A DNA stretch of 64,000 nt, from positions 47,837 to 111,836 of the IMG/VR virus record IMGVR_UViG_3300036715_002535; one strand, 5' to 3'. The notes below the pieces were generated by a model. The model made no database searches, had not been told where the DNA came from, and worked only from the letters and a program-made list of their open reading frames with translations. Source of the stretch: a virus. Both the position numbers and the translations under genes were made by a program. Positions 18,137-61,575 of the stretch are shown in pieces (position 1 is the stretch's first letter; each line of letters starts with the position of its first letter).

Positions 18137-18520
18137 CTAGAATTTCTGGTTGTGAAGATACAAAGCGAAAGCTTTGTCTTCTTGATCAATGTGTTCAACC
18201 AACCACTCGATCAACCATTCAATCGTTTTCTCTTCTAGATTCTCTGTATGAATCAACGCGAGTTTTGCTTTCATTCCCTGATGCAGAAGAACATGTTTCG
18301 TTAAGTCCGGGAACTTAGCACGTTTCATCATTTCTTCTTCAAGAAGGAAATGTTCTTTTGTGTAGTCATTCAGAAATTTTAACAGTCCAGGAATATCCGT
18401 ATTTGCGTGAATATGGACTGCGTTGAATAATCTCTCGACATGACCAAATAATTCTCTATGTTGAGTATCGATATCCTCAATAAAAGTATCCCACTCTGGT
18501 CGCCAGGAGAGTTCAATCAT
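18137..18520 (-). CDS. Bacteriohemerythrin
   Basis: IDTQHRELF, HFLLEE, HVLLH, WLVEHIDQED. Confidence 0.9.
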   Translation of the reverse strand: MIELSWRPEWDTFIEDIDTQHRELFGHVERLFNAVHIHANTDIPGLLKFLNDYTKEHFLLEEEMMKRAKFPDLTKHVLLHQGMKAKLALIHTENLEEKTIEWLIEWLVEHIDQEDKAFALYLHNQKF

Positions 18521-18918
18521 ACCTTAAAGATCTTTCTGACAGCCTTTTGAACTGCCGTGGAAAGTTCCTTGGGAACCTTCAAGTCAATGAGGGCATCCAG
18601 GATCAGGGTATCCCACTCGTCCGGGCTACCATCAGTATCCCCGATGTGCTTCTCTACGCGCTCCACCACTTTCTTTGCCCAGACATCCGCAGGAGTAACC
18701 TTTGGAGTCTTGGGAGTGACTACGCGGAGGGTACCAGAGGGCATAGTGAACTCACCCAGTCCACCCTCAATAGGCTTCAATCGAAGCTTGCCATCTGGCT
18801 TGACTTCGAGAACCTCGTATTGTACTTTCGTACCTGGCTGGGAAACAATGTCACCCACCTCGAAAACTTCGGGACCGCGCTTCTTGGCGGCTACTTTTGC
18901 GATGACATGAATCTTCAT
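18517..18918 (-). CDS. KLRIxA-leader protein (MKIHVIAKVAAKK), SH3-like body possible
   Basis: Leader motif; upstream GGTTAAGAAATA. Confidence 0.6.
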   Translation of the reverse strand: MKIHVIAKVAAKKRGPEVFEVGDIVSQPGTKVQYEVLEVKPDGKLRLKPIEGGLGEFTMPSGTLRVVTPKTPKVTPADVWAKKVVERVEKHIGDTDGSPDEWDTLILDALIDLKVPKELSTAVQKAVRKIFKV

Positions 18919-19416
18919 TCGAACTACCCCTTATTTCTTAACCCCGTGGACCCTCAGATTTGATAGTCGTACCGTAGATGTTGAACTTCTCGCTCAACAC
19001 TGGAATCGTAGTTTTTCTTCGAAGCCTCATCTTATTCCCCGAAAGAAGGTCGTTGGTCTTTCCAGTAAGATTCCGGGATAGCATCAGGATCGCAATCACG
19101 ACCATTTCGAACCGCCGGCTCACCACAACCCTCCTCTTTACAAATAGAACTCGAGATCCGGAATTTCATAGTTCACCTTAGAAAATTATAAGGTCAACTC
19201 TTCTTTCTTATTTCGGTCCATCAACCACTTAATCACTCCAAAAAGAGCTGCCCAACCACCATACTCCTTCACCAAACGGGTGATTGAGATCTTCCTTGCA
19301 GAAGATCTCAGTTCCAATCACTACAGGGGTGATGGGTCGATCACGTTCAATGATTCGATGGGTGGCAAAAACTTGACCCAACGAACTCACTGCCACGTAG
19401 TCCCTTCGATGCTTGA

Positions 19417-20028
19417 TCACTTGCACCCTTCATCCGTCATGTCGCTAGACATGAAGTCGGAAAGAGTTCCATCATGTTCGATTGCTCGATTGACCAGGTA
19501 AGGACCTTCCAGTTCACGAATGGTGTTACGAAGGATGGTTTCGAGCTGACCGCCGATCTTAAATCTGGGTACGTGGACATCCAAACTCTTTCGGATGTCT
19601 CCATCTTTGTAACGCTTGGTAGAAGCCATCCAATCGCACATCATCTCGATCAGATCAATGAGGGACATCCCATCAATTCCATCCGTATAGTGTTCCGGAT
19701 GGTGAAGATTGCAGCGGTAGTGGTGATCTATGGCCGGCTTCATGGCGTCTAGGAACGCTTGATACTCTGGGGATCCGTATGACACACCGGAAGCCAGATG
19801 CGTGTATTTTGCGAAGTATGGGAGCTCTGGGTCGTAGAGTTTGGACCTGTCATGGGTCTGGGCACGAAAGTTCAGGCGCTCGGTCACATTGGCGATGAGA
19901 CCCTTTACCAGCTCGATGTGCTCGAGGGTAGCGCGGTTGGTGATCTTCTCCTCATGGATCAATTCGCGACCAACCGAAGATCTTGGAATGGTCTGAAAGT
20001 CCGGTCCGGTGCTATGAAGCTTCGCCAT
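19417..20028 (-). CDS. DUF5662-like (HD-related) protein
   Basis: H...HDRSK...HHYRCNLHHPEHY...LIEMMCDW. Confidence 0.7.
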   Translation of the reverse strand: MAKLHSTGPDFQTIPRSSVGRELIHEEKITNRATLEHIELVKGLIANVTERLNFRAQTHDRSKLYDPELPYFAKYTHLASGVSYGSPEYQAFLDAMKPAIDHHYRCNLHHPEHYTDGIDGMSLIDLIEMMCDWMASTKRYKDGDIRKSLDVHVPRFKIGGQLETILRNTIRELEGPYLVNRAIEHDGTLSDFMSSDMTDEGCK

Positions 20029-22219
20029 CACTGATCCTTCCAGAAGTAGTAGGTCATCGCGGAACCAAACCCCCAGAAGATCGTTGTGACCCACTGACGG
20101 AAGGTCCAGGCTCGATCCGTATAGGTACGACCGATCCAGTTTTCCAGATGGCGGAAGACCGGAAAGATCTTCCACATAAGCCATCCGAAGAGAAACCCAA
20201 GGAGTAACGCGATGATCTCGCGCTGGTAGCGCTTCAAGAAATTACTCCGCACAGACCCTCCACTTCTTCTCGAAGGTCTTCCAGGTAACCCAACCGGTCC
20301 AGAAGCCATAGTCCATGACCTTGACCTTGGTTCCCTTGACCTCGAGAACCTTACAGAGCCGACCATTCGGATTTCTCTGTACGTACTTACCCACCAGGTT
20401 TTTCATCTATTCCACTTGGCTTTCCAGTCACCTTTGAATTCCTCGACTTCCATCCTGGCGCCTTCGACCGCTCCATAAAAGAAGCGGAAGAAGATCACTG
20501 GTAAGTACCAGATGAGGAGCCAGACCAGATGGTGGACTTGAGAAAGTCTCCTCGAAGGATGTCACCCTTCTTGGGAATTTGTTCCTTCCAACCAGTCACG
20601 TGGAACTTGGTCTTGTCCGTGAGGTTGGCGAAGATTGTTTCATCGTTCCACTGGATTCGGTCACCCCAACCGCCACCGATTGTGAAAGGGTTTTCCATGG
20701 TTCCGAACATCAGAAGCCTCCAGTGATTATTTCTTCCGCCTGCTGATCTCCATGTTGCAATCGAACGGATGCGATTGCCTCAACCCATCTGGAAGGGTAC
20801 CTTTCTGGAACATCGTCGCACCGGGAGACCTTCTTCTCCGCTTCTTTTCGACCCATTTCATATTCGTCGATGCAGAGAAGTATGGCTTCTTCCTCGGTCA
20901 TTTCGAAGTGAGTGAAGTGATCCACAACTTCCGAAAATCTCGCGATCTTTCTGTTGGGTTGACGAACGAATCTCCAACCCATCAGAACCTCTTATCTTTC
21001 TTTTTGTCTTTCTTCTCTTTCTCTTTGTCCTTGAGGGCTTCTTGAATTGCAGCAGGACCAACGATGGTGGTGACCGCAGTCAACCCTTCAGCAACTGCGT
21101 AGAAAAGAGAAAGTAAGGGAAACGCCATGTTACTCCTCCACGATCATGAAGTAGGGCATACCACCAGGTAACGCAGACCACATCTCACGAGGCATGAGAA
21201 TCCTGGCTTGTCCAGAAGCAACTCCCAGACATAGGAGCTCATCCACATTGACATGCTCACCCCACTGCTCCTCGAACCGATCCACGCACGCCTGAAGGAA
21301 AGACCACCCACCACCGGACTTCTGGCGGAAGGTCTCAGGGAGCTCCATCAGTAGAGCTTTGATCTTGCCAGAGTTCTCCTTGAGACGGCCCGGATGAAAA
21401 CCCACGTGAGCCATCACCCCATGAGCTTCCACGAATCCTTCTGGTGGTTGACCATCGGTCAACTCCTCGTCACGGAACAGGCAGTCCATGAAAACGCTGT
21501 GAACGGCTTTAGCGGTTAGCTTTGGCATCGTTGGATTCTTCGATTGAGCATCTGCGAGGATCTGGGATTCAGTCAGTTCGTCGCTCATTTGACCTTCTCC
21601 AGAAACTCATCGACTATGACCATTAGCACGAGGGTGATGCCCACCCCGATCCAGCCATTGGCATCACTTCCGGTGTTGTGTCCAATGGCACAACTGATGA
21701 AGAGACCACCGAAGAAAAAGAGAAACTTGTTAAGGTCTGTCATTTCGCCTCCGAGACTTCGATAGAATCAACATACCAGGAATTCTTCTGCACTTCTGGG
21801 TGGAACTTCTCGAACAGGTCCGCAGCGCAATGCCGAGCGAAGTAGGTCTCAGAAGACTCCACTTCGTACTCAGCAAGGGTCTTCTTGGTCTCGCGATCAA
21901 TGACCACGCACAGGAACTTGATCACTTCTTCACCCGCAGATACTTGAACTCAGGATGCTGATCTTTCGCCTTCTGCACTAGAGGAAGACCGTTGGCCACC
22001 CGCAGGACCTCGTTCCGATCTTCCTCGGACATGGATTCCGGAAAACCGGGATCCCAGGAACCATCCGGGCGGGAAGAAGGCCACTCAGGGATTTGGTCGT
22101 ACCCACGCCTCTTGCATTCATCGCGGAAGCGCTTACGTGCATCCTTGTCCGGCATATCGATGTAAATGGTGCTCACTTGAGACTCCAACCGTAACCAGGT
22201 TCCTCGGGACGAAGGATGG

Positions 22220-22731: not shown

Positions 22732-22761
22732 AATATACCCTTGACAATTAAATCGTCAAGG
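22732..22761 (-). promoter_or_regulatory. Palindromic promoter, class A
   Basis: aatatacccttgacaattaaatcgtcaagg on + strand. Confidence 0.85.
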
Positions 22762-28892: not shown

Positions 28893-29225
28893 TCAACCCT
28901 GGAGCATATCTACACGGATGTACTGAGGTGCCTTGGGCTTGGCAGCTTTCTTAGAAGTTTCCTTCAACCTAGCTTGCTTCGCTTTCTTGTCGTGCTGTAT
29001 TGCCATCTTGGTGTGGTGAGACATTTCTGAATCTTTACCAATTTTCTCGTAAAGGGTTGCTGCAATTCTATGTAGGTGGGCAGCTTTGACATGGTCCTCA
29101 AACGAATTCTCTTTATCGGCTTTAGTTGTAGCTTCATTCGCTTTGATGGTAGCAGCCGCAGCTTTGTCCTTGTAGGTACCAGAGGTCAATTTTTCCGGCA
29201 CGGTTGCTTTGACATGGAGCTTCAT
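28893..29225 (-). CDS. KLRIxA-leader protein (MKLHVKAT), Ala/Lys/His-rich
   Basis: Leader motif; upstream GGTTAGAATAGAATAG; opposite strand to neighbours. Confidence 0.65.
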   Translation of the reverse strand: MKLHVKATVPEKLTSGTYKDKAAAATIKANEATTKADKENSFEDHVKAAHLHRIAATLYEKIGKDSEMSHHTKMAIQHDKKAKQARLKETSKKAAKPKAPQYIRVDMLQG

Positions 29226-29245
29226 CTGCCACCTCTATTCTATTC

Positions 29246-29266
29246 TAACCGACATTCGTGAGGTTA
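29246..29266. promoter_or_regulatory. Back-to-back TAACC-N11-GGTTA motif, class B
   Basis: Between divergent genes 29225(-) and 29283(+). Confidence 0.6.
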
Positions 29267-38705: not shown

Positions 38706-41531
38706 TTACAGTGCGCAGATAAACTCCAATCCCTCCGGTACAAGATCGAAGCCCAAGATCAAGCGCTGCCCAGAGGGATTGACACAGAAGTTCGAAGCAC
38801 CCAAGCTGAATACTGATCCATCCAACCTAGCACGCTGCTTGATATCCGTGACCTTCCCGCCTACATAGAGAAAGCCCTTGTGTGCCCGGTAAATCGTCTT
38901 GATGCCTACCTTGTGACCCAAGAGCCTGTCCTTCCAACCTACCGCTACCCTAACCGTACTCTTCTTAAGCAATTCCTCGTAGGTATGCACGAGGATCCTA
39001 CCATTGTCGAATTGTACCACTAACTTATCCGTGGGCTCCACGCAAACTGCCGTTTTAAGTGGCACCCTACTGAAAGCCCTCCTACCATTAGGACCTTCAT
39101 CCTGCAACCGGCATATCAGCGTGCCATCGCTCCCCAACCCCACCACCACCTGATCCCTATCTGGCACAACTAATAAACACTCCTGCTGCTCCCGCTCATA
39201 CCCTAACCGCTTACCTGGCGCATATACCGATACCGCTTCCATATACCCACCAGAGTCCACGAATGAAAAATAATCCTTACATTCCCCTACTAACTTACCC
39301 GTGAACCCTCTTCCTCGTATAGGCTGATCCTGAGATAACTCCCATCCCTTATCTGTCACCACTACCCAATTACTCCTGGACTCTAACTTCTTGAATTGTG
39401 GCAAATCACTCTTATCGCAATACTTGGTTGTACGTGGTAGGTCCGCTGCCTTATAAAACTCTACTAACTCATCCACCTGCTTCTTCAATTCAAATAGAGG
39501 AGAGGTCCCTTTCCAATAGATATACTTCTCCCTACTGCTTGCGTACTTGAGCTTCAACTGCTCCTCGTTCAATTTCAAGATCTGCGATACCTTCAATGAC
39601 AAAGCATAATCTACCATCCGCGGCACGATGAACTTCGCTAATTCTTTTTTCACCAACTCCAAGGTTTCAGAACTAAGCGCCTTCAAGAACTTGGCGTGGT
39701 TCTGAATGATCTTGATCTGCGTATCCAACTCTAACGACTCTTGTTCATAGGTGGCTACGAGATCCGTAATACGTAGATCCCATAGTCCCAACCTATGCTG
39801 TGTCCAATAAGAGAGAATGTCTACCAGCGAGCACATCTTGATTTCGAATGAGCTTTCTTCACCACTCCGTGAGGCATCCTCGTTCGATGCGCCTTTTCGT
39901 AAGGGTTTCTTAGACTCGGAGGGCACTACCACGTGGAACTGATAGCTCTCACGCTTGATCAGAGCAGGTAGGATCCTCGTGCTGAACAAACGTGGATCTT
40001 TCATCACTACCTGCACGCTGACCGCTTCCGTCGAAAAGTCCGCGAGCTCGATCATCTCTTTCTCTACGAGATCAGCCCACGCAGAGCTCAGAGTCGAATA
40101 GGTGACTAGGGGTGCGAACCCAGTGATGGTCACCTTAGACTGCTTGAGATCGAGCTCATATGCGCAGCAGTACGCTAGAGAGCCGACCCCAGTGCGGTAT
40201 ATCTCGGCTATCTCGTCGTGCCCACTCAAGCAATAACACTTATTTTCGAGCTGAGGCCCCTCCATCAACGCAAAATAACTTTTTTCAGTTTTACTTATCT
40301 CACGGGAGTGGTTCGGGGAAACTTCTAAATTCCCTGGAACCCCATCTTCCACATCAACAACACCGGAAACCGGTGTGGAGGGATCATTATCGGGGGTAGG
40401 GTTACCCTTAGTCTTCTTACCACCAATAGGGGACTTAGAGTCATCCAGGGTGCTAATGCGTTCCTTTGCGAGGATCTTTTCGTACTGATCATTGATATAG
40501 GCTTGGGATGTTTTGGCTACGGACAGGATATGATGGGAGGGGATACTTCCAGAGAAGCCCATGGAGATGCCAGAGTAGCCATTGACAAGGATCAGGGGGA
40601 GGAGGGAGGAGAGGACTTCAGGTTCCTTTTCTTTGCCATCAAAGTTGGGTACAAAGTGGAGATATTTTTTATCCAGGAAGTGGGAGAAGCCCAGGTCAGT
40701 GATGCCGGATTCGGTATAGCGATAGGCAGCTGGGGGGTGGCCTTTGATAGATCCATAGTTGCCCACGCTTTGGATAAGGGGGTATTTGATAGTCCAGGGG
40801 GTGGCAAGGGCAACGAGGGCTTCGTATGCGGAGGAGTTATGGGTTACGAGGAGTTGGTCACCGCTTACGATGAGGGCATTTTCATAGTCATTGACGGTAA
40901 AGTCATACATAGGTTCAGGGGAGGGGAGTTCTTCAATTTGGATTGACTTGATATAGAGGGGATGGGGGAGGGAGGATTTATCTAGGACAAGTTTATCGGA
41001 TTGAAGGAGGGAGGGGTAGTGTTGGATAACTTGGTAGGGTTTCAGGTCTTCAGCTTTTATCCAGCGTTGATTTACAAAGAAGGGGTGATTAGAGGTGCAG
41101 CGTACAGTTTGCCCATTACTTAGGTGCAGGTTGTAGATTTTGGTTGAGTATTGACCAATGCGGAAGGAGTGGGCAATAGAGGGAACTAAGCGACCTTCTT
41201 TGTTGAGGGATAGGACTTCAAGTTGGGGGGTATGGGATTCGATGAGTTGGGGGATAGTTTTGGGGATTCCATCCAGGCTGAACAGTTTGGTGTTACCCTC
41301 GAGGCAATCTCCATGGGGATTGTAGCTTCCGATTACATGTCCAATGATCTTCGCGCACTTGAGGGAGCCACGATCTGGTTTGAGGCCCATTTCGTAGGCG
41401 GACCAGAGGATGCGTCGTTGTACAGGTTTGAGGCCATCACGGATATCGGGGAAGGCGCGATTGAGGGAGATATAGTGGCCATACTCCAGGAGGTTGGTTT
41501 TGATCAGTTGTTCAGCGACTACGTGGGACAT
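38706..41531 (-). CDS. gyrA: Type IIA topoisomerase subunit A (GyrA/ParC-like) with intein
   Basis: RAFPDIRDGLKPVQRRIL, PHGD, GNYGS...PAAYRYTE, VPNFDG..EPEVL..LLP.ILVNG.SGI.MG. Confidence 0.9.
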   Translation of the reverse strand: MSHVVAEQLIKTNLLEYGHYISLNRAFPDIRDGLKPVQRRILWSAYEMGLKPDRGSLKCAKIIGHVIGSYNPHGDCLEGNTKLFSLDGIPKTIPQLIESHTPQLEVLSLNKEGRLVPSIAHSFRIGQYSTKIYNLHLSNGQTVRCTSNHPFFVNQRWIKAEDLKPYQVIQHYPSLLQSDKLVLDKSSLPHPLYIKSIQIEELPSPEPMYDFTVNDYENALIVSGDQLLVTHNSSAYEALVALATPWTIKYPLIQSVGNYGSIKGHPPAAYRYTESGITDLGFSHFLDKKYLHFVPNFDGKEKEPEVLSSLLPLILVNGYSGISMGFSGSIPSHHILSVAKTSQAYINDQYEKILAKERISTLDDSKSPIGGKKTKGNPTPDNDPSTPVSGVVDVEDGVPGNLEVSPNHSREISKTEKSYFALMEGPQLENKCYCLSGHDEIAEIYRTGVGSLAYCCAYELDLKQSKVTITGFAPLVTYSTLSSAWADLVEKEMIELADFSTEAVSVQVVMKDPRLFSTRILPALIKRESYQFHVVVPSESKKPLRKGASNEDASRSGEESSFEIKMCSLVDILSYWTQHRLGLWDLRITDLVATYEQESLELDTQIKIIQNHAKFLKALSSETLELVKKELAKFIVPRMVDYALSLKVSQILKLNEEQLKLKYASSREKYIYWKGTSPLFELKKQVDELVEFYKAADLPRTTKYCDKSDLPQFKKLESRSNWVVVTDKGWELSQDQPIRGRGFTGKLVGECKDYFSFVDSGGYMEAVSVYAPGKRLGYEREQQECLLVVPDRDQVVVGLGSDGTLICRLQDEGPNGRRAFSRVPLKTAVCVEPTDKLVVQFDNGRILVHTYEELLKKSTVRVAVGWKDRLLGHKVGIKTIYRAHKGFLYVGGKVTDIKQRARLDGSVFSLGASNFCVNPSGQRLILGFDLVPEGLEFICAL
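40836..41306 (-). mobile_element. Mini-intein (157 aa, no homing endonuclease) in gyrA
   Basis: PHGD|CLEGNT...CTSNHPF...MYDFTV...VTHN|SSAY. Confidence 0.9.
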
Positions 41532-41617
41532 GGGGGGACCTCAGGGGTATAACCGGAGTGGAGAGGGTTTTCGCCTTGAACGAATAAAGAGAGGAGAAGG
41601 TAGACCTTGGATCGTTT

Positions 41618-41656
41618 GGAGTAACCCCTTTGAAAGTGGGGATGCCTGGTTATAAT
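41618..41656. promoter_or_regulatory. Class B promoter/cassette header, variant
   Basis: ggagtaacccctttgaaagtgggg-atgcct-ggttataat. Confidence 0.7.
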
Positions 41657-41673: not shown

Positions 41674-42159
41674 ATGACCAAGATGCGTATTCAGGCAGCA
41701 GTAGTCAAGACCAAAACATTCAACTACAAGGATGAGGAACAGGAGGCAAAGGCTTGGGCTACGAAGATGAAGGAAAAGGGTAACGTTGTCTTCGAGGATG
41801 ACAAGGGTTCCGATACCTACTGCTTGTACGCTGCACCTTCCAAGAAGGATATTCAGGATTGGTGCGAGGAGCAGGAGCAGGAGGTCAAGTTAGTTTCTTT
41901 CACGGCTAGGGTCCAGGTTGCCTCCAACACCTCCATCTGGGCAATCTTACGGCAGGATGCTTTCGGGCAGGGGGATGCCATTACTCTAGTAACTGCGTTG
42001 AACGAGCAGGAAGCATTTTCAATCTACGCTATTGAGAGTGCAGGAAGCATAGCGCCCTCAAACGTTTCTGAGGAACAAAACAGGGCGGTGCTGGAAGAAT
42101 TTTATGGGGACTACAAGGATGGTTACTACAAAGTTCTACCAACGGAAATGATTGGGTAG
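41674..42159 (+). CDS. KLRIxA-leader protein (MTKMRIQA)
   Basis: Leader motif, SD GGAGG, second motif-like ARVQVA mid-protein. Confidence 0.7.
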   Translation: MTKMRIQAAVVKTKTFNYKDEEQEAKAWATKMKEKGNVVFEDDKGSDTYCLYAAPSKKDIQDWCEEQEQEVKLVSFTARVQVASNTSIWAILRQDAFGQGDAITLVTALNEQEAFSIYAIESAGSIAPSNVSEEQNRAVLEEFYGDYKDGYYKVLPTEMIG

Positions 42160-42538: not shown

Positions 42539-42592
42539 GGGAGTAACCCTTTTGAAAGTGGGGTTACAATTACTTATGGTGAAGCTACGTAT
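42539..42592 (+). repeat. 54-bp promoter-plus-leader cassette header, copy 1
   Basis: gggagtaacccttttgaaagtggggttacaattacttATGgtgaagctacgtat, identical to 43740-43793. Confidence 0.95.
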
Positions 42593-43028
42593 TGCATCCC
42601 AAGGTGAGATTAATAGGATCATGTGGACCCTCGGTCATCTGCGGAAGGCAGTGAGGGGGCTTCACAAGTACGAGTCGTCTGTCAATGTGGAGGGGAAGGT
42701 AGCTCTCAAGGCAGCGATGGGAGTTTTGTTGGAAGTAATCAAGCAGGAAGAGGGTAAGATCGAGAAATTAAAGTTCGAGGGTGAAGAACATCCTCGAACC
42801 TGGAGCATTCGGAAAACGGTAAAGAGTCTGAGTTGGACCCTTCGGAAGTTGAAGTTTGCTTCCAACGATCTACAGATCTATCTGGGTCCACACCTTCTGG
42901 GTAAGACCACGATAGGTAAGGATGCCATTCTGCGTGCGAAGGCCATCATAGATCAAGCTGTGAATGAGATGCAGGAGAAGGTTAAGGCTCTCGAGGGTGA
43001 GCTGTGGAGAGAAGTCTTTCCTGATTAG
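42576..43028 (+). CDS. KLRIxA-leader protein (MVKLRIAS), two helical repeats
   Basis: Leader motif; WTL..LRKA / WTLRKL internal repeat. Confidence 0.7.
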   Translation: MVKLRIASQGEINRIMWTLGHLRKAVRGLHKYESSVNVEGKVALKAAMGVLLEVIKQEEGKIEKLKFEGEEHPRTWSIRKTVKSLSWTLRKLKFASNDLQIYLGPHLLGKTTIGKDAILRAKAIIDQAVNEMQEKVKALEGELWREVFPD

Positions 43029-43076: not shown

Positions 43077-43116
43077 TGAAAGTGGGGTTACTATTACTTA
43101 TGGTGAAGCTACGTAT
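43077..43116 (+). repeat. Partial cassette header
   Basis: tgaaagtggggttactattacttATGgtgaagctacgtat. Confidence 0.9.
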
Positions 43117-43666
43117 TCAAGCAAGTGTCAAGGCGAACATGTGGGATGATGCTTATCACCCAAGTAAGCTTGGTCCCTCTTTGACCATCAACCCTTGGCA
43201 GGAAGATCAGTTCTGGGTGGCGCCAAAGGATCCAGGTATTCCCGAGGAAACGAAGCAGCATCTGAGGGAGTGGTTGCAATACAACAACAAGAGTTTGACA
43301 GGCGAGGATCTCAATTTCTTGATGCGTAAGTACTCTTACTCCGGGACGATGTTTCGAGGGGTGGGGTTTCAGACCATGGAAGAGATGGAGGAGTTTCTAT
43401 CCACGTTAGGGAATGAGAGGCATCCTACCTCGTGGTCCAAGTCTTTTGAGGTAGCCAAGGAGTTCGCTTCGGAGGGGCAGACTCAATCCTCCCTTCCCAA
43501 TCATTGGTTGGTTCTGAAGTATAAGGGCAAGGCATTCGACTTGCACAAAATGCATTTGAAGCTCTCTCCACCCAGTCAGAAGAAGAAAGATCGTGGGGTG
43601 GTGAGGGAGCAGGAACTAGTGATCCCTGCAGGATCCTACAGCTTCGAAGTAGTGGATAAGGGTTAG
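43100..43666 (+). CDS. KLRIxA-leader protein; putative R-S-E ADP-ribosyltransferase
   Basis: MVKLRIQA; MFRG, PTSWSKSFEVAKEFA, REQELVI motifs. Confidence 0.7.
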   Translation: MVKLRIQASVKANMWDDAYHPSKLGPSLTINPWQEDQFWVAPKDPGIPEETKQHLREWLQYNNKSLTGEDLNFLMRKYSYSGTMFRGVGFQTMEEMEEFLSTLGNERHPTSWSKSFEVAKEFASEGQTQSSLPNHWLVLKYKGKAFDLHKMHLKLSPPSQKKKDRGVVREQELVIPAGSYSFEVVDKG

Positions 43667-43739: not shown

Positions 43740-43793
43740 GGGAGTAACCCTTTTGAAAGTGGGGTTACAATTACTTATGGTGAAGCTACGTAT
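43740..43793 (+). repeat. 54-bp promoter-plus-leader cassette header, copy 2
   Basis: Identical to 42539-42592. Confidence 0.95.
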
Positions 43794-44367
43794 CAAAGCC
43801 GGTCTATCTAATAGGGTCTACCATTTCACAACTCTTTCCTCGAAAGCATCTCAATTAGTTGTGGTGGATGTTCAGCCAGTACATCGTGGGTTCATTCACT
43901 TTGATGTTCCTAGTTTGATGAAGAAGTTCGAGGACTATGGACGGGTGCTCATTGTCTATAATGGGGCAGAGTTAGGTTACGAGGATAGTCCAAATACCAT
44001 TCAAGAGTGGTATTTGGAGGAGGGTATGAACGAAGAGGTTCATTTAGAGTTTAAAGATAAGGCTTACGGTTTTCTTCGTGGGGCAATGGATACTGGAGTT
44101 GCTGACGAGAACATCGTTGGAGCAATCAAGGTAATGCTCGAAGAAGACTTATCAGATAGCAGGGAATTATCTACCGAGATGCAAGAGCAGTTTGGTTTGA
44201 GTGAAGATACAGCTATCAGCATTCCGGATGATCTGATAGATGCCTTGAAGGATTTCAATGGGGCAGATATTTGCGGTGGTGGAGATAACGATTGTTTAAG
44301 AGAAGTGGAGTTGCTAGCTGAAGGTGCTGGCTTAAGATTCAATCGTTTGTATCGATTTGTTTATTAA
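43777..44367 (+). CDS. KLRIxA-leader protein; isochorismatase/cysteine-hydrolase-like
   Basis: MVKLRIKA; LVVVDVQP, K..GF, ICGGGDNDCL. Confidence 0.55.
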   Translation: MVKLRIKAGLSNRVYHFTTLSSKASQLVVVDVQPVHRGFIHFDVPSLMKKFEDYGRVLIVYNGAELGYEDSPNTIQEWYLEEGMNEEVHLEFKDKAYGFLRGAMDTGVADENIVGAIKVMLEEDLSDSRELSTEMQEQFGLSEDTAISIPDDLIDALKDFNGADICGGGDNDCLREVELLAEGAGLRFNRLYRFVY

Positions 44368-45776: not shown

Positions 45777-45800
45777 TAACCTTGAAAGAGGGGTTACAAT
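45777..45800. promoter_or_regulatory. Class B motif taaccttgaaagaggggttacaat
   Basis: Same TAACC...GGTTACAAT architecture, in a divergent gap. Confidence 0.75.
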
Positions 45801-45823: not shown

Positions 45824-46414
45824 ATGGGTAAGCTCAATTGTAGCAGGGAAGAAGGACCGGGTGTAAAGAAGCTTCGTATCCGTGCTGGTGTGCCTAAGAA
45901 GGCGGCACTCGTGGGCATGCCAGTCCCAGGCTGGTTCATCTTCTACAATCTGGGAAGCGGTAACTGGGAGGTCGAGGCAGCGCCCAATCCAAATACTGCG
46001 AGCCGGGAAGAACTGCAGAAGGTGATGGAAGACTTCAAGGAGTTTGGGTACAATGACAATATCAAACGGCACGGTCATAGCCGTACCTTCTATGTAGAGA
46101 TTACACCAGAGATGGTTCAGGATTGGGCTTCGGAAGGTGTGGAGAGCTGGGAAGATGATATGGTCACAGATGCCATTCAAGGACTTCCAAACACGGATAT
46201 TCGAAGAATTTTAAAGCAGAAGGGCTCCAAGAAGGCATCTGAGCTCAGGATTGTATCTGGGAAGAAGGACCAGCCCAAGAAGCGTGAAACCTTTGAGGAA
46301 GCAGTCGAGCGCGGGTACAAGGAATCCAAAGAGGTATTCGAGAAGCTTCAAAAGAAGCCGGTCCTGGTATCCGATGGGTCTACTACTTCGGACTTGGGAT
46401 CTCAGCAATCCTAA
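45824..46414 (+). CDS. KLRIxA-leader protein (MGKL...KKLRIRA)
   Basis: Leader interrupted by a 13-codon insertion; plus-strand island. Confidence 0.7.
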   Translation: MGKLNCSREEGPGVKKLRIRAGVPKKAALVGMPVPGWFIFYNLGSGNWEVEAAPNPNTASREELQKVMEDFKEFGYNDNIKRHGHSRTFYVEITPEMVQDWASEGVESWEDDMVTDAIQGLPNTDIRRILKQKGSKKASELRIVSGKKDQPKKRETFEEAVERGYKESKEVFEKLQKKPVLVSDGSTTSDLGSQQS

Positions 46415-48448: not shown

Positions 48449-48476
48449 GGTAACCTTCGATGAAGAGGGTTACAAT
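48449..48476. promoter_or_regulatory. Class B motif ggtaaccttcgatgaagagggttacaat
   Basis: Between divergent genes. Confidence 0.75.
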
Positions 48477-48494: not shown

Positions 48495-48728
48495 ATGGTC
48501 AAGCTTCGTATTCAGGCAAACGTACCTGGATTCATGGAAGATGATGCGATCATCCGTGATTTTGTGGGTACTGGCTTGAACGATCGTATGTTATATGAGC
48601 ACATCGTACAGCAGACTGCGAGCCATCAGATTGCCAGGTACGTGGACAAACGCCTGAAGGAGTTGAAAGAGACCCTTGGAGAAGAAGGACTTTGGAACCG
48701 TCATCTACAATTGAAAGGGACGAAATGA
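48495..48728 (+). CDS. KLRIxA-leader protein (MVKLRIQA)
   Basis: Leader motif, SD GGAG. Confidence 0.7.
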   Translation: MVKLRIQANVPGFMEDDAIIRDFVGTGLNDRMLYEHIVQQTASHQIARYVDKRLKELKETLGEEGLWNRHLQLKGTK

Positions 48729-48961
48729 CCAAGCATAAGATCACTTCTGGTAAGAAAGCGGAGTTGTTCAACGAAGGCAACTGGCAGGATCATCTAGTGC
48801 AGTTCGTCGAGTCCTGGGCACACGATCAGATCAATGCTGACGGTACAGGTCCTACGTGGAAGATGGAAATCGAAAGGGCTAAGCAGGAGCTCTTGGAGAA
48901 GCTTGAAACCACCTGCACGGAAATAGAAGAGAACCTTCACAATGGCGAGTACTACGTTTAA
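48725..48961 (+). CDS. Acidic protein with weak leader (MTKHKITSGKKA)
   Basis: Coupled ATGA overlap within the leader-gene operon. Confidence 0.6.
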   Translation: MTKHKITSGKKAELFNEGNWQDHLVQFVESWAHDQINADGTGPTWKMEIERAKQELLEKLETTCTEIEENLHNGEYYV

Positions 48962-48972
48962 GGAGAAAGACC

Positions 48973-49158
48973 ATGGGTAAGCTACGTATCCGAGCCACCT
49001 TCAAGGCATTGAAGTTGCCCAAACGACTTCTGGAAGAACAGAAGAAGATGGAGAAGGACAACTCCGACATGCATTGGGTGCAGGATAAGATGAAGAACGA
49101 TACAACTCTGGAACAGCAGGAAGAAGCTACTCCAGGGGACAACGAAGGAACAGATTGA
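48973..49158 (+). CDS. KLRIxA-leader protein (MGKLRIRA)
   Basis: Leader motif, SD AAGGAG. Confidence 0.65.
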   Translation: MGKLRIRATFKALKLPKRLLEEQKKMEKDNSDMHWVQDKMKNDTTLEQQEEATPGDNEGTD

Positions 49159-49850
49159 TGAAACTCCACATCAAAGCATCTCTCAAGCGTGCAGTTCTCA
49201 CGATCACCACGCTTGAGGATGTGCTGATGGCGCGTCAGTTCATCACAGAACGGGATGGTCAGTTCCAGGAAGGTGGAGCGATCATTGCACCTGAAATCAT
49301 CAAGCAGATGCAGGATCAAGGTTTGATCCACTTGCGTTGGCAGGGGAATGATTACTCTAACTGGGAGCTTACTCCTGAGGGATTGAAGGCCAAGGAAGCT
49401 CTGACCAAGAAAGTGAAGTACAAGAAAGGTGATGAGATCTGGTACTTCCAGCCCACCCAATTTCTAGATATGCCACGTGTACCCAATTCCTTTTCAGGTA
49501 TCTACGTCGCTTGCATCCTCTGTACAGTCAAGAGTTGCGGTATGAAGCAGATGACCCTTGAGCGCAAGGTGGGTGGCAAGATGATGCAATACTTCATCAA
49601 GCCAGAACTTTACAAGAAATGGGCGGTACCTGCTACTCAGTTTCATTCCGAAGCTGAAGTAGTTGCCTATGGGACAAAGCTCAGTGCAGATGAACTAGAT
49701 CGTGTGATAGAGTGGGACGAATCCCGTTGGCGAAATGCTCAGAAGAAGTACGCAGAAGATCCCAAGGGTCTAGCGTTTGAACAGAAGGTTTACGATGATC
49801 ATAGGACACTCCTTGATCTGGTGAAGCCCTTCGCAAGGATCGTAGACTAA
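49155..49850 (+). CDS. KLRIxA-leader protein (MKLHIKA)
   Basis: Leader motif. Confidence 0.7.
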   Translation: MMKLHIKASLKRAVLTITTLEDVLMARQFITERDGQFQEGGAIIAPEIIKQMQDQGLIHLRWQGNDYSNWELTPEGLKAKEALTKKVKYKKGDEIWYFQPTQFLDMPRVPNSFSGIYVACILCTVKSCGMKQMTLERKVGGKMMQYFIKPELYKKWAVPATQFHSEAEVVAYGTKLSADELDRVIEWDESRWRNAQKKYAEDPKGLAFEQKVYDDHRTLLDLVKPFARIVD

Positions 49851-51785: not shown

Positions 51786-52103
51786 TTAGTTCAACTCGTT
51801 TTCCGCGAGATTGATCAGTCCTTGAAGAAGTTCCGGATCCTGATGGTGAAGATATTCGACGACCTTCTTGGACTTCTCCAGTTCTTTAACAAGGATTGTT
51901 ATCTCGCTCAGATCCTTCGATGAGGTCATTAGACGAACTGCGTAGAAGATATCCGCAACTTCCTTCTCGAGATCTTTACGGTTCTCCCAACTGTCGTACC
52001 CATGCCGAAGGATCTTACCAGCGGCCTGGACAGCCTCCCCACACTCCTCAATGAAGAGTGCTAGTCGTTCAGCTTCTGCAGGAGATAGCTTGTTGGAGAA
52101 CAT
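51786..52103 (-). CDS. MazG-like nucleotide pyrophosphohydrolase
   Basis: EECGEAVQAAGKILRHG...LEKEVADI. Confidence 0.75.
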   Translation of the reverse strand: MFSNKLSPAEAERLALFIEECGEAVQAAGKILRHGYDSWENRKDLEKEVADIFYAVRLMTSSKDLSEITILVKELEKSKKVVEYLHHQDPELLQGLINLAENELN

Positions 52104-53233
52104 TATCGCCTCAGAACGATTGCAGCAATGTCAGGAAAGTGTTCCGTGTAGTCCCCGAAGATCTGAATCCCAAAGGAGTCCGGCTCGACCTTGCTCCAGG
52201 TAATCTTCTCCTTAAAACCTGCGCCAGAATACGATCCAAAGCTCATAGGTGAAGAGTGGATTTCGATGAAGCCCGCCCAAGGCTTAATGAATGCTTCTTG
52301 AGCTTTGATAGAAAGGTCAGCTAAATAGTCTTTCTTGAGGTGCGGAACTACGCAGATTGGGAAGTCTCCTGCAATGCCACCACCCAGCTGTAAGAAAGCC
52401 AAAGAGGTAGTTTGAGTAGTTTCTTGATACCACTCAGCAAGCTTGTGCATGTAGCGGAAAGAGTGAGCAACCACTTCGGGACTGATGGGGTGGTCTTGAG
52501 CATACTGAGAGAGGAAAGGATGTTTGCCATTGTAGGAATAGTAAGCGAAGATGTTGCCCATTGTGGAATCTTCGACTCCACCCACAATGATCTCAACTTG
52601 ATTCTTCCAGGCCCAGTAGAGCCAGCAGTCGTGGAGTTCTTCCGTTCCATGGTACTTGGACTCGATCTCCTCCAAGACCTTGAAGAAGTATTCGTGCCAG
52701 AAAGGCGCCTTGTAAGGTTTCTCTGAAACTTGATGAAACTTGGCATCTTCTTCGCGCCAGAACTTCTCGAAGAGGGGCAGAAGTACGCGAGTAGATTCAT
52801 CTTCAGGCAGGAAGGTATCGGTGATACGGCGGAAGCCCTTATGATCGAGTTCCTTCTCCTGCTCGGAGGTCAGTTCAACGTAGTCAGGAATGTAAGCGTA
52901 GTGCTCGTTTGCGACCAGACGATAGAGGGATTCTTCCAGATTGGCGCCCGTGACCGAGATGCCTGAGATCTTGCCTGCGCGGATCAGATCACTGATGATG
53001 ACCCCTTGCTGGAACGAAGAACCCGCACCAGACATGGACAGGAAGATCTTGCCGCGATGGACGCAGTGGTCACGAAGCCAGAGGCCAGCGTCTATCGTCT
53101 TGCCACCATTACAGTGACGCTTGGTATGTACGAGATAGTTCGTGACTGGAGTGAGATGAGATGGGATATACTTACGTTCTCCCAGGAAGATCTTCTTCCG
53201 GAGTTCCGGGGAAAGGGTATCGAGCTTGTTCAT
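52103..53233 (-). CDS. Deoxyhypusine-synthase-like (homospermidine synthase type) protein
   Basis: KIFLSMSGAGS, VTGANLEE, RRITDT, EDSTMGN, GGGIAGDFPICVVP, GSYSGA..EKITW.K; likely start ATG 53233. Confidence 0.88.
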   Translation of the reverse strand: MNKLDTLSPELRKKIFLGERKYIPSHLTPVTNYLVHTKRHCNGGKTIDAGLWLRDHCVHRGKIFLSMSGAGSSFQQGVIISDLIRAGKISGISVTGANLEESLYRLVANEHYAYIPDYVELTSEQEKELDHKGFRRITDTFLPEDESTRVLLPLFEKFWREEDAKFHQVSEKPYKAPFWHEYFFKVLEEIESKYHGTEELHDCWLYWAWKNQVEIIVGGVEDSTMGNIFAYYSYNGKHPFLSQYAQDHPISPEVVAHSFRYMHKLAEWYQETTQTTSLAFLQLGGGIAGDFPICVVPHLKKDYLADLSIKAQEAFIKPWAGFIEIHSSPMSFGSYSGAGFKEKITWSKVEPDSFGIQIFGDYTEHFPDIAAIVLRR

Positions 53234-53276
53234 TGAGAACTCCCAGGTTGACTTTCGTGAATGGATTGGATACCCA

Positions 53277-54254
53277 TCAGTATGGTTTGTCCGACTTTCC
53301 AGCAAATCCAAGAGCAGGGGCATCAGTTGGATTAAACTTCTTCTTGTGCATGGACTTCATACGATCGACTGTTTCGTTGATGTCTTTACCGTAGCACTTG
53401 ATGGAGATGATCATTTCCTTGAGGTGGGGAATGGTCAGGCCATCGGAGAACTCAACCCACTGATCCAACTCTTCTGGAGTGAGGGAAGGTTCCTTCTTTT
53501 CGAGGTAGAAGCGGCGAGCAGCGTCAGACGGCATCCCAATGTAACGAATGAGATCAAATCGACTGGGACGGTCAATAAAGCGAGCATCAAGCCGTTCTGG
53601 GTAGTTGGTGGTTGCTAGGTGAACGATGTTGTTCACCTGGGACTCTCCATCGAGTAGGGAGAGGAAACCATTCTCATCGTACCTACGGACCAAGCTATCC
53701 AGATCCTCGAAGATGGCAATAACCGGGCGGTTGGGCTCGATCTTGCGAATCATCTTCAGACCATCATCACCCAGTCCAGGGTGTTCGACCATGAGAACAA
53801 TACCATCCAAATCTTTGATTACTGACCGAATGATTAGTTGGATCGTGGAAGTCTTACCAGAACCCGGAGGACCCCACATGAGAATTCCACGCTTGTGTAG
53901 GAATCCACGTTTTAGGAACTCATCCTTGAGAGCCCAGAACTGTGTGAAGTCCTCAAGAATTCTTTTGGAAGAATCGTCTGGTAGAACTAAAAGGTCATCC
54001 GTGATAAGGGGGATGGCTTCGAGATAGGGACCGGTGTTGGATGATTGTGCCCGGTAGCATTGAGAAGGAAGCGATTGAAAGGTCTTTCCGATGCCCCAGT
54101 AATTGTCACCGGTGTTGGCCCAGCAACTAAGGTTCTCCACTTTTTTGGCATTAGATGTATCAGACCCCTCGATGGGAGTGCAATCTGGAGGTGGATGAGG
54201 TAAGGGGGATTCCACCTGAGTGCCGATCACTTCGGAAATGTTTGGTTCACTCAT
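53277..54254 (-). CDS. AAA+ ATPase
   Basis: KRGILMWGPPGSGKT, IFEDLD, TTNYPERLD...RPSRFD. Confidence 0.9.
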   Translation of the reverse strand: MSEPNISEVIGTQVESPLPHPPPDCTPIEGSDTSNAKKVENLSCWANTGDNYWGIGKTFQSLPSQCYRAQSSNTGPYLEAIPLITDDLLVLPDDSSKRILEDFTQFWALKDEFLKRGFLHKRGILMWGPPGSGKTSTIQLIIRSVIKDLDGIVLMVEHPGLGDDGLKMIRKIEPNRPVIAIFEDLDSLVRRYDENGFLSLLDGESQVNNIVHLATTNYPERLDARFIDRPSRFDLIRYIGMPSDAARRFYLEKKEPSLTPEELDQWVEFSDGLTIPHLKEMIISIKCYGKDINETVDRMKSMHKKKFNPTDAPALGFAGKSDKPY

Positions 54255-54620: not shown

Positions 54621-54647
54621 TAACCTCACAACAAGTCGGTTTATAAT
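54621..54647. promoter_or_regulatory. Class B motif taacctcacaacaagtcggtttataat
   Basis: Between divergent genes 54601(-) and 54666(+). Confidence 0.6.
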
Positions 54648-54665: not shown

Positions 54666-54911
54666 ATGAAGCACAAGATCGCACGTCGCCCACGTCCCAT
54701 GAAGCAGATCATTCTGAATGTGATCGACGATGAAGATTCTCTTGAGAGAATGTTGAACGCAATCAAAGAGTGTTCCGACCCTGGACATTCCTTCGATGTG
54801 GTAGTCGATCCAGATGGAACAGAGGAGGAAGGTGGCAATCTATCCTTCGGGATTGATGGTGATGGTGCCTTCCGACTCGTAGACATCAAGATCAAAGAGG
54901 TGGTAGCATGA
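54666..54911 (+). CDS. Acidic protein with basic N-terminus (MKHKIARR)
   Basis: Plus-strand island, weak leader match. Confidence 0.6.
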   Translation: MKHKIARRPRPMKQIILNVIDDEDSLERMLNAIKECSDPGHSFDVVVDPDGTEEEGGNLSFGIDGDGAFRLVDIKIKEVVA

Positions 54912-55201
54912 AGCTCAGAGTCAAGGCCAACCTACGAAAAGCTACCCCAGTAGAGTTCTCCCGCGAATACGAAGTCGAGACTGGCTCCTACGAGCGAGAT
55001 GAGGACTCTGGAGATCTTTATGAGATCAAGCTAGACCTGCAGTTCACTGCGTTCCAGGAAGCAGATGGCAAGTGGTACGCAGATGTTGAAGGCGGCTACC
55101 ACTCTGACTACGACTTCGGAAGCATCGTTGAAGAGTACAAGGGTACCTTTGCCCAGGATCTTCAGGAAGCTTTCCCCGGCGCCGTAATCGTCTGGGCTTA
55201 A
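54908..55201 (+). CDS. KLRIxA-leader protein (MKLRVKA), highly acidic body
   Basis: Leader motif; 21 D/E versus 5 K/R after residue 12. Confidence 0.7.
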   Translation: MKLRVKANLRKATPVEFSREYEVETGSYERDEDSGDLYEIKLDLQFTAFQEADGKWYADVEGGYHSDYDFGSIVEEYKGTFAQDLQEAFPGAVIVWA

Positions 55202-59597: not shown

Positions 59598-59883
59598 TGC
59601 TCCTGCTTGTCCAGACGAAGTTTGGCGTGCTCGTTGGTGTAGCCACCAGGGTAACGCTTCATCAACTTAGTCATGTTCGCTTTCGATGACTTGCTTGGAA
59701 TCGATCTTTCATCTGAATGCAGCTTTCTTTGAATGTCAAACCACCCTCGTGCACCAACCTAGGCTTAGGCGGAGCAGGAGGTTCAGGAGCATGCTCCTGT
59801 TTATCAAGACGAAGTTTCGCGTGCTCGTTGGTGTAGCCACCAGGGTAACGCTTCATCAACTTAATCATGTTAGCTTCAATGAC
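59598..59883. repeat. About 92-bp imperfect direct repeat (59598-59690, 59792-59883)
   Basis: Both copies encode VIE.NM.KLMKRYPGGYTNEHAKLRLDKQEH on the minus strand. Confidence 0.9.
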
Positions 59884-60315: not shown

Positions 60316-60347
60316 TAGTCCCTCATGGTCTAATGAGTAACCCTTGT

Positions 60348-60710
60348 CTAGTCAGCTTTCCAGGTAAAGTAAGCTTCATCCCAAGTCAGAATGTGCTGCA
60401 AGAAGTTGGTTCGAATGAATTCCAGAATCTTCTCAGAATTATCGTTCAGAACGCACTTCAAAGCGTGATCAACCATGAATTGAAGAATTCTTTGATGCTC
60501 GTTCTTGTGGGATTCGTAGAGAGGATACTTCGAATCCTTCATCTCCTGCTCTTCCTTGAAGAAGTGAGCAGTACAGTAGTCGATCAAGCGCCGAGAGAAA
60601 TCCCTTCGAATCCGAAGGTCCAACTCTTCTCCAACGTGTACCTTCGAACGGAGATCTTCGTACAAACGAAAGATCCCTTCATGGTCCTGAATCAGTTCAA
60701 TCCTACTCAT
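60348..60710 (-). CDS. Hemerythrin-like protein
   Basis: DHE, HFFKEE, HKNEH, HILTWD. Confidence 0.8.
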   Translation of the reverse strand: MSRIELIQDHEGIFRLYEDLRSKVHVGEELDLRIRRDFSRRLIDYCTAHFFKEEQEMKDSKYPLYESHKNEHQRILQFMVDHALKCVLNDNSEKILEFIRTNFLQHILTWDEAYFTWKAD

Positions 60711-60827
60711 TTCTCACCTCTATCTGCACAAAGGATCTCTCAACAGTTAGAGGTATCGCACATTCCATTATAGCCGTTCGGGAACACAAAAGGAAGTCCT
60801 TTCATATAATAGAAGGGAGGTATTTCC

Positions 60828-61247
60828 ATGAGCAACCTGAAACAAAAACCATGGTGGCTTCCAATTTACGGCAGATGGGTAACGATGTATCCTTACATCT
60901 ACTACCCTTCAAGTGTGAACGGTGAAGAGTACGCACTCAAGTACCCTTGGGTGATCGCACACGAAACAGTTCATCTTCGCCAGCAGAAAGAGTACAGTGG
61001 TGGTTTAACCAAGTGGTACATCAAGTACCTCACGGACAAGAAATTCCGTTTGGCAGCAGAGGTAGAAGCCATTGCGGTTGAATTGAACTACAATCTGGCT
61101 CGAGATCCTCGTTGGGTTGAAACTACCCTGATGCAGTACGCAGACGAGCTTTCCGGCTCCTCCTACTCCCACGCTGCGGATTCGAAGAATGAGGCAGTTC
61201 ATCTTCTCCGGACGGAACTGGGTAGAATTTCTGGAACTGTAATATAA
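60828..61247 (+). CDS. HExxH metallopeptidase-like protein
   Basis: AHETVHLRQQ...EVEA. Confidence 0.65.
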   Translation: MSNLKQKPWWLPIYGRWVTMYPYIYYPSSVNGEEYALKYPWVIAHETVHLRQQKEYSGGLTKWYIKYLTDKKFRLAAEVEAIAVELNYNLARDPRWVETTLMQYADELSGSSYSHAADSKNEAVHLLRTELGRISGTVI

Positions 61248-61266
61248 TTGATCAATGGGGGATGGC

Positions 61267-61575
61267 ATGGCTAAGCTAAAGATCATCGCAAGAATCCTAG
61301 AGCCTTCAGACTATCTCTGGCACGCTTACGATTCGGATCAACCGATGTCTCTGACAACACGCAATGGTCACAAGACCATTTCGATGCGGAAGGGAACCAA
61401 ATACGGAATTAGACCATCAACTAGTGGTTCTGCAATCCGAATGATAACGGAGATGTATGGACCAACCATCGTCTTTACCCTCACGATGGATGAGAAGCGT
61501 GCCCTTCTAGCTAAGTCCGTTCCCGCTCCCAAAGGGACTCTTCAGCAGGTGGCCCGGGTTCGAGCAGGTAAATGA
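61267..61575 (+). CDS. KLRIxA-leader protein (MAKLKIIA)
   Basis: Leader motif; upstream TATAATTG. Confidence 0.6.
   Translation: MAKLKIIARILEPSDYLWHAYDSDQPMSLTTRNGHKTISMRKGTKYGIRPSTSGSAIRMITEMYGPTIVFTLTMDEKRALLAKSVPAPKGTLQQVARVRAGK

Follow-up and report, generated by a model that had tools for sequence, protein, structure and literature searches.

Why should so many proteins of one phage, most of them unrelated, begin with the same ten or so residues? The question is raised by a stretch of 64,000 nucleotides (nt), here called the window, which comprises bases 47,837-111,836 of the 111,836-bp virus contig IMGVR_UViG_3300036715_002535 in IMG/VR (CheckV completeness 56%). Many of its genes begin with a short basic peptide, the tag, of the pattern M-(x)-K-L-[RH]-[IV]-x-A-x-φ-K-K. 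An earlier note on this DNA had taken the tag for an analogue, distinct in sequence, of the capsid-targeting sequence (CTS) of phage T4, which would load late-made effectors into the virion for injection. We believe it is well supported that the peptide is an address tag, working at the protein level and read in trans. That the address is the phage head, as it is for the T4 CTS, is in our opinion the best reading, but it is unproven and we give it about an even chance.

Among the genes of the contig are those for a terminase, a portal, tail fibres and a head maturation protease, as well as for an intein-bearing topoisomerase II, QueC, MazG and a deoxyhypusine-synthase-like protein. The terminase shows only about 30% identity to its counterparts in cultured jumbo myoviruses, for example Dickeya JA11, Erwinia Yoloswag and Vibrio GR7B, and a nucleotide search of a cultured-phage collection with 12 kb of the window gave no match. 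We conclude that the DNA comes from a jumbo phage that is uncultured and has a genome of roughly 200-300 kb. Gene calling for this analysis gave 256 genes on the contig.

The fourteen N-termini listed in the earlier note all translate exactly as written at their coordinates. Six-frame translation of the whole contig gives 19 matches to K[LMI][RHK][IV].[AS], and 15 of them lie no more than two codons from the start codon of an open reading frame (ORF) of at least 59 amino acids (aa); another match, at 45824, stands 14 residues inside its ORF. The suspected enrichment over a shuffled background is real, since 13 of the 256 called proteins match at their N-termini against a mean of 0.03 and a maximum of 1 in 300 residue shuffles. 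Three additional copies are masked by mis-called starts. The part of the contig ahead of the window holds five more tagged genes (contig positions 3037(-), 30973, 36100, 36486 and 41158). The tagged share comes to about 7% of the proteins, both in this phage and in a distant relative, G001. The N-terminal claim holds only in part for the gene at 45824, where the tag is present but KKLRIRA stands 14-15 residues inside an ORF that starts with MGKLN. At 45824-45886 the full tag KKLRIRAG follows the MGKLN start 14 residues on, and it looks as if an original MGKLRIRA leader had received an insertion of some 11-13 codons.

The bodies behind the tag had been called unrelated, and for most of them this stands, because an all-against-all BLASTP comparison aligns only N-termini. 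It fails for a few weak pairs. Possible remote paralogues are 43777/49158 (27% over 101 aa, E 0.005), 41674/45824 (E 0.001) and 43100/48495 (54% identity within the first 28 aa). Nearly all bodies of the tagged window proteins are without a match in Pfam and PHROG. None of the structural proteins that could be identified (terminase, portal, fibres, protease) carries the tag. Looser tag-like N-termini (MTKLTIRIAA, MKFKVV, MKFHVA and MKIFVKT) are seen on genes in or beside the head module.

We derived the consensus from 45 curated tags, of which this contig supplied 17 and G001 supplied 28. Counted from the Lys it reads K (41/45), L (41/45), H/R, L/I/F/V, K/x, A (43/45), x, V/L/I, K, K. Acidic residues are absent from the first eight positions, which is also true of 37% of untagged N-termini. 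Because hydrophobic and basic residues alternate, the tag probably takes the form of a strand of about 10-11 residues, extended, amphipathic and strongly basic. Conservation runs on beyond the Ala to φ-K-K with no protease motif at a fixed distance afterwards, so the predicted cleavage after the Ala is not supported. A fixed-distance Glu cleavage site, or another protease-type motif after the tag, was looked for in the 45 tags and not found. The head proteases of T4 and φKZ cut after Glu (PMC5694885); if the protease of this phage does the same, its sites would lie at variable distances downstream of the tag.

It is important to ask at which level the tag is constrained. Tag positions with the same residue use the same codon at a frequency of 0.35 in G001, where 0.34 is expected, and of 0.44-0.46 in this contig, where 0.36 is expected. 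Synonymous codons therefore vary almost freely, and the tag is selected at the protein level. The small excess in this contig comes from a few recent duplications. A promoter-plus-leader cassette of 57 nt is repeated at 98% identity, with a third copy that is partial, and the identity reaches into the first codons. On these codon statistics we reject both an RNA-level motif and gene conversion as the cause of the tag.

Relatives were found by a terminase alignment search of IMG/VR; a single terminase sequence as query gave none. Two complete or nearly complete genomes, G001 (307 kb) and G002 (263 kb), were compared whole. G001 has a terminase 45% identical to that of the contig and 18 of the 256 contig proteins in common, and about 28 of its 431 proteins start with a variant of the tag, typically MKLHLKAFVKK. 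In G001 the motif is conserved as that genome's own variant. The head genes that the contig and G001 have in common are those for the portal, the protease, a 139-aa protein and a 184/146-aa protein. In G002, whose terminase is 36% identical and which serves as a negative control, there is no tagged protein, and a loose form of the motif has 0 N-terminal matches where 0.76 are expected. Tagged genes adjoin the terminase in two 5-kb metagenome contigs (terminase 51% identity). Closer relatives exist, with terminases of 47-74% identity. Longer contigs of closer relatives are P0004 (55% identical, 118 kb), P0010 (328 kb) and P0068 (a 23-kb contig).

The difference between the two tag-bearing genomes is concerted. 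Position 4 of the tag is I or V in 17 of 17 copies here and L or F in 27 of 28 in G001 (P = 1.6e-11). Unrelated genes have changed together by the dozen in each genome and their codons are independent, so the switch points to a common reader that co-evolves with its signal genome by genome.

Untagged homologues exist in other phages, and the tag is therefore modular. A tagged 306-aa protein of G001 (at 3709) aligns from residue 10 on with a G002 homologue that is untagged and has a different, shorter N-terminus. A 98-aa protein of G001 seems to be little more than the tag and the start of an ADP-ribosyltransferase (ART) domain, ART-PolyVal (Pfam match from residue 26). The same domain recurs internally in an untagged 842-aa protein and, after a 290-residue spacer, in another tagged protein. 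Measured against the curated Pfam cut-off for ART-PolyVal (PF18760), 31.2 bits, two tagged G001 proteins lie above it (L011:8377-9729 with 51.3 bits and L014:18515-18811 with 32.5 bits) and two others match below it, with 19.7 and 26.0 bits. Another tagged G001 protein is a NUDIX protein and one more has an ExoX-like C-terminal motif.

In the window itself the clearest cargo is P0070. It matches PHROG family phrog_832, 'RNA polymerase ADP-ribosylase', with E 9.6e-6 and has the R-S-E motifs in order (FRG 85-87, TSWS 110-113, EQE 170-172); these are conserved in P0073, P0075, P0077 and P0079, and the family forms are [YF]RG, S-x-W-[ST] and E-x-E-φ-φ-x-P. Pfam and PDB sequence searches with P0070 found no match, and an AlphaFold2 model of the family from a 6-sequence alignment is unusable (predicted local distance difference test, pLDDT, 38). 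Since none of these gave confirmation, we call the protein ART-like and nothing stronger. An exhaustive search found two homologues of about 30% identity that are tagged (MKLKLKAKV and MKLSLNAHIKK) and longer ones that are untagged. Three longer relatives lack the tag when gp337 of the cultured Ralstonia phage RsoM2USA, a relative of those longer homologues, is included. The giant metagenomic proteins P0074 (2242 aa), P0076 (1058 aa) and P0078 (938 aa) have up to six repeats matching P0070 and look like the multi-ART polyvalent proteins of PMC5512222. The protein encoded beside the ART-like gene, at 43777-44367, shows FLRG, an S-x-S-like motif and REVELL in R-S-E order, by eye and with a loose regular expression. 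For the protein at 49158 an ESM Atlas search gave no match above chance, and its AlphaFold2 model, made from the protein alone, is likewise unusable (pLDDT 43).

Two classes of promoter can be told apart. Class A is σ70-like (TTGAC-N17-TATATT) and strongly conserved, has more than 20 copies in the contig and leads clusters of small genes; its sites carry an internal TTGAC/GTCAA palindrome. Class B is a -10 element only, (G)TTAnAAT, 5-25 nt ahead of the start codon. For genes whose spacer is 25 nt or longer, TTAnAAT lies upstream of 7 of 9 tagged genes, 4 of 9 genes of the structural region and 5 of 112 other genes (P = 4e-7 and 0.0016 for the first two, respectively). No tagged or structural-region gene has a class A promoter directly ahead of it, and the statement that none of the tagged genes follows such a promoter holds for the window. 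We could also confirm that most of the tagged genes form islands on the opposite strand behind a GGTTA/TAnAAT motif; in the window their class B site is the 3' arm of a TAACC-N-GGTTA palindrome. In the form TAACC-N3-16-GGTT[AT] this palindrome has 8 copies where 1.4 are expected, all in divergent intergenic regions, and 7 of the 8 directly abut a tagged or weak-match gene. One such element lies between the terminase and a divergent tagged gene. The loop varies from 6 to 13 nt, and a hairpin therefore fits better than a dimer operator. The mRNA of the gene at 42576 is probably leaderless, because its ATG stands only 5 nt past the class B promoter.

The tight terminase-portal operon of G001 includes genes for three small, acidic, tagged proteins of 69-93 aa. 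Four tagged genes, two of them ART-like, stand at the end of a co-directional cluster that holds a tail-fibre gene, and five tagged genes (with a sixth behind a mis-called start) lie within the block of large, presumably structural genes. Most of the tagged genes of G001 have ordinary Shine-Dalgarno sequences. Taken together, promoter type and gene neighbourhood fit late expression with the head genes.

How might such a tag work? We suggest that it is fused to the N-termini of accessory proteins that turn over fast in evolution, and that a trans-acting factor of the phage would read it. The tagged proteins would be made alongside the late structural proteins and dock on the core of the prohead. 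Closed into the head together with the DNA, they would be injected into the next host, where they may act as effectors of the first minutes, for instance as ADP-ribosyltransferases. What we infer in this scheme is that there is a reader, that the proteins are made late, that they go to the head and are injected, and that any cleavage occurs. Of the possible destinations the head interior has the best support, given the precedents of the T4 CTS and P1 DarB, the ART cargo, the clients found in head operons and the promoter type of the structural genes. The phage does have a head maturation protease (phrog_18299, E 1.7e-40), with orthologues in G001 and G002. The analogy drawn in the earlier note has thus stood as far as a portable protein-level address goes: codons are free, homologues outside the clade are untagged, and the tag is conserved at 45% terminase identity and absent at 36%. 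For the head destination and the late-made effectors the case is circumstantial and consists of the ART-like cargo, the tagged genes of the G001 terminase-portal operon and a -10-only promoter in common with structural genes.

Several points weigh against the head. PHROGs on 10 large G001 proteins and tblastn of the gene after the protease revealed no major capsid protein, nor was the scaffold found. Pfam searches for Peptidase_S77 and Gp23 gave no match, control genomes included, and are hence uninformative. The closest cultured phages are distant, with terminases only about 30% identical. Some 30 different clients per genome are many for a head; the heads of giant phages contain more than 50 proteins (PMC5694885). 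By analogy with T4 internal proteins the tagged bodies might be expected to be unusually basic, and they are not. The first Glu comes 9-52 residues past the Lys of the tag, a distance not clearly unlike that in untagged proteins once the acid-free tag is allowed for. The structure models (pLDDT 43 and 38) are too poor to see whether the tag packs on a fold. Late timing is something we infer only from promoter resemblance and gene neighbourhood, and two tagged genes upstream of the window, 36100 and 36486, belong to an operon led by a class A promoter.

The alternative that survives best keeps the reader and changes the destination. The tag could be a short linear motif for another hub: a degradation or unfolding tag of the AAA+/ClpXP type that limits the lifetime of effectors, a binder of the sliding clamp or a similar hub, or an address for some other intracellular site. 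We consider this possible but not likely. The concerted variant of each genome demands a reader without naming which. The Met-basic-φ-basic-φ form of the tag seems to resemble N-terminal ClpX recognition motifs, and its x-L-x-L-x-[AF] form brings clamp-binding peptides to mind. A Cdc48/p97-like AAA+ ATPase is encoded beside tagged genes (53277-54254), and two tagged genes stand in the early-like class A operon. However, we reject this ATPase as the reader, since it has no homologue in the tag-bearing G001. Three tagged genes inside a terminase-portal operon, the promoter type in common with structural genes and a cargo that parallels T4 Alt also speak for the head rather than for a degradation or clamp motif. 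A reader encoded by the host would explain poorly both the loss of the tag in G002 and the switch from I/V to L/F, unless the hosts differ.

Each of the three remaining alternatives conflicts with at least one result of the tests: the variety of cargo families, the homologues that lack the tag, the codon statistics, or the motif's length and genome-specific switch. We find it improbable that the tag is an expression device, in which the first codons or residues aid initiation or early elongation (a translational ramp, or peptides of the SKIK type) in a regulon that includes leaderless mRNAs. It is true that the tag opens the protein, its Lys being encoded by codon 2 or 3, that it is tied to one promoter class, and that some copies begin only 5 nt past the -10 element and are probably leaderless. 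Ramp effects concern roughly codons 3-5, and what is conserved here is more than that, ten residues with an Ala in 43 of 45 and a φ-K-K tail. The free codons leave no RNA-level motif, most copies in G001 have an ordinary Shine-Dalgarno sequence, and the portal, terminase, fibres and protease all do without the tag. One copy sits 14 residues in from the start, and the change from I/V to L/F is hard to explain by way of the ribosome.

It is more improbable still that the tag is the first β-strand of a shared fold and that its carriers are one very diverged family of paralogues. A few pairs are weakly similar beyond the tag, true paralogue sets exist among the tagged proteins of G001, and alternating hydrophobic residues are typical of β-strands. 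But the bodies come from different families (R-S-E ART-like, ART-PolyVal, NUDIX, KMPT-N-like, ExoX-like_C and helical acidic proteins), untagged homologues of the same bodies exist, and the tagged proteins span 61 to 450 aa.

We hardly believe that the tag is a scar of gene capture, left where genes were inserted behind a mobile promoter-plus-leader cassette whose shared codons have no function of their own, since the two almost identical cassette copies with their partial third and the excess of palindromes beside tagged genes are outweighed by DNA identity that runs through the shared codons in only 2-3 copies, by codon sharing that elsewhere exceeds expectation only slightly in this contig and agrees with it in G001, by the many tagged genes inside operons that have no cassette, and by a peptide that is conserved between genomes with so few proteins in common, where a scar would decay at the protein level.

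The features on which the argument draws are collected in the table.

Table 1. Tagged genes, promoters, palindromes and neighbouring features. Positions are those of the window unless marked as contig, L-numbered or G001 positions.
Feature	Position	Strand	Basis or remark
Tagged gene, 133 aa, MKIHVIAKV	18517..18918	-	Translation, motif scan, BLASTP; no Pfam or PHROG match
Tagged gene, 110 aa, MKLHVKATV	28893..29225	-	GTTAGAAT 17 nt upstream
Tagged gene, 161 aa, MTKMRIQAAV	41674..42159	+	Translation, motif scan, BLASTP
Tagged gene, 150 aa, MVKLRIASQ	42576..43028	+	Translation, motif scan, BLASTP
Tagged gene P0070, 188 aa, MVKLRIQASV; ADP-ribosyltransferase-like body	43100..43666	+	PHROG match and R-S-E motifs
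Tagged gene, 196 aa, MVKLRIKAGL	43777..44367	+	Translation, motif scan, BLASTP
Gene of 196 aa, tag KKLRIRAG 14 residues inward, ORF start MGKLN	45824..46414	+	Translation, motif scan
Tagged gene, 77 aa, MVKLRIQANV	48495..48728	+	Translation, motif scan, BLASTP
Weak match, 78 aa, MTKHKITS, start uncertain	48725..48961	+	Translation, gene calls
Tagged gene, 61 aa, MGKLRIRATF	48973..49158	+	Translation, motif scan
Tagged gene, 230 aa, MKLHIKASLKRA	49158..49850	+	Tag kept in 87% and 80% identical homologues
Weak match, 81 aa, MKHKIARR	54666..54911	+	Translation
Tagged gene, 97 aa, MKLRVKANLRKA	54908..55201	+	Translation, motif scan
Tagged gene, 102 aa, MAKLKIIARI; KMPT-N-like body, paralogue of gene at contig 12357	61267..61575	+	Translation, motif scan
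Looser tag-like genes	L004:11652-12356, 12357-12659, 14098-14553, 2178-2687(-)		First one directly 3' of the protease gene
Palindrome TAACC-N11-GGTTA, arm running into -10-like GTTAGAAT of gene 29225	29242..29266	-	
-10-like GTTATAAT, class B, ahead of gene 41674	41649..41656	+	
Palindrome TAACCC..GGGGTTA and CAAT, class B promoter	42544..42570	+	ATG 5 nt later
Second, near-identical copy of the palindrome/promoter cassette	43745..43771	+	
Palindrome TAACC..GGGGTTA and CAAT ahead of gene 45824	45777..45800	+	
Palindrome and GTTACAAT leading operon 48495-49850	48451..48476	+	
Palindrome TAACC..GGTTT and ATAAT leading genes 54666-55201	54621..54647	+	
Palindromes	29246-29266, 41550-41570, 42544-42566, 43745-43767, 45777-45796, 48451-48472, 54621-54642; contig 3059-3074		
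Class A sites, 3' ends	2781, 4664, 6121, 10753, 16337, 22732(-), 26923(-), 27676(-), 28138, 35986, 37064		
Hemerythrin genes	10305-10694(+), 18137-18520(-), 60348-60710(-); L005:9932-10315; G001 L015:413-844(-)		PF01814

Some neighbours of the tagged genes deserve mention in their own right. The phage has four paralogues with a hemerythrin domain (PF01814, E 2e-9 to 6e-17), against a single such protein in G001. Several of these genes directly adjoin tagged genes, and in G001 the hemerythrin gene leads an operon of four tagged genes. The AAA+ ATPase discussed above is of the classical type (325 aa) and shares an operon (52103-54254, minus strand) with the deoxyhypusine-synthase-like protein (PF01916); this operon diverges from a tagged-gene island. 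The topoisomerase II or GyrA-like gene (38706-41531, minus strand) has its Intein_splicing domain at residues 88-232. In the head module a gene for a GIY-YIG-like homing endonuclease (L004:10274-10939) has the portal on one side and the protease on the other, and an IS200/IS605-type transposase (L005:8356-9534(-); phrog_506, E 5e-128) adjoins the gene for a 994-aa tail protein.

What would it mean if the tag does load the head? The sequence alone would then list the proteins injected by a whole clade of giant phages. This set probably holds the first weapons against host defences and the host transcription machinery, and its members are mostly ORFans, beyond the reach of annotation by homology. 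The tag would be a second, independent solution to the problem that T4 solves with its CTS, at a much larger scale. Its natural variants would make the code between tag and receptor testable, and a portable tag of ten residues could also package foreign proteins. Should the destination be another, a terminal motif that co-evolves and is carried by about 7% of a phage's proteins still marks a hub that has not been described. More tentatively, and with some doubt, we propose that the tag and its reader form a new protein-sorting system of high capacity in an uncultured clade of jumbo phages. A basic strand of ten residues would direct some 30 unrelated, rapidly exchanged effectors in each genome to one place, be it the head interior or another structure built by the phage. 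Tag and receptor would co-evolve genome by genome, as at position 4 (I/V against L/F), and in that case the sequence itself would give the repertoire of injected or sorted effectors.

The known systems offer partial precedents. The internal proteins of T-even phages are a diverse set that shares only a conserved CTS (PMC3012670). An N-terminal signal of P1 DarB is sufficient to bring this anti-restriction protein, and a reporter as well, into the head (PMC9024508). In SPN3US the identical N-terminal 15 residues of gp53 and gp54 have been remarked upon as CTS-like (PMC5694885). T4 packages and injects its Alt protein, which is an ART, and for the ARTs of polyvalent proteins injection along with the DNA has been predicted (PMC5512222). 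The T4 CTS is the only well-studied case of one short N-terminal peptide on diverse phage proteins, and P1 DarB provides a second head-targeting signal.

The likeness to T4 is considerable. Its CTS, on IPI-III, Alt, gp67 and gp68, is also a short N-terminal peptide (10-20 residues) on diverse proteins, and in both phages the client genes are hypervariable and the tag is conserved (PMC3012670, PMC5694885, PMC5512222). The clients of the T4 CTS include effectors for anti-defence or host takeover, an ADP-ribosyltransferase among them, and there is ART-like cargo here too. Both phages encode a head maturation protease. The differences are just as plain. The T4 CTS is acidic and ends in an x-x-E Glu cleavage site, whereas the tag described here is basic and β-strand-like, has no acidic residue in its first 8 positions and lacks a fixed cleavage motif. 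Homology between the two is unlikely. The clients are also far more numerous than in T4: the 56% of this genome that the contig represents has at least 17, and G001 has about 28. Their packaging is here a prediction. T4-type phages have mobile regulatory cassettes, promoter stem-loops of the PeSL type, and here too a repeated promoter-plus-hairpin element flanks ORFans in plastic regions. The cassette in this contig explains at most 2-3 recent copies, and the peptide is conserved where the DNA is not.

The other comparisons are looser. There is no consensus among the Dar proteins of P1, whereas one strict consensus is found here on dozens of proteins. SPN3US and φKZ are jumbo phages as well and have many internal head proteins, but their propeptides are mostly longer than 100 residues, are cut at A/S/G-x-E and are common only to paralogues; the tag has 10-11 residues and sits on non-homologous proteins. 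With the polyvalent proteins this clade shares the ART-PolyVal effector domain, found in four tagged G001 proteins (two below the Pfam cut-off). A polyvalent protein unites many domains in a single giant polypeptide, frequently on a MuF or portal module, whereas here single domains each carry a small tag. If our reading is true, the same weapons would here be delivered in another way.

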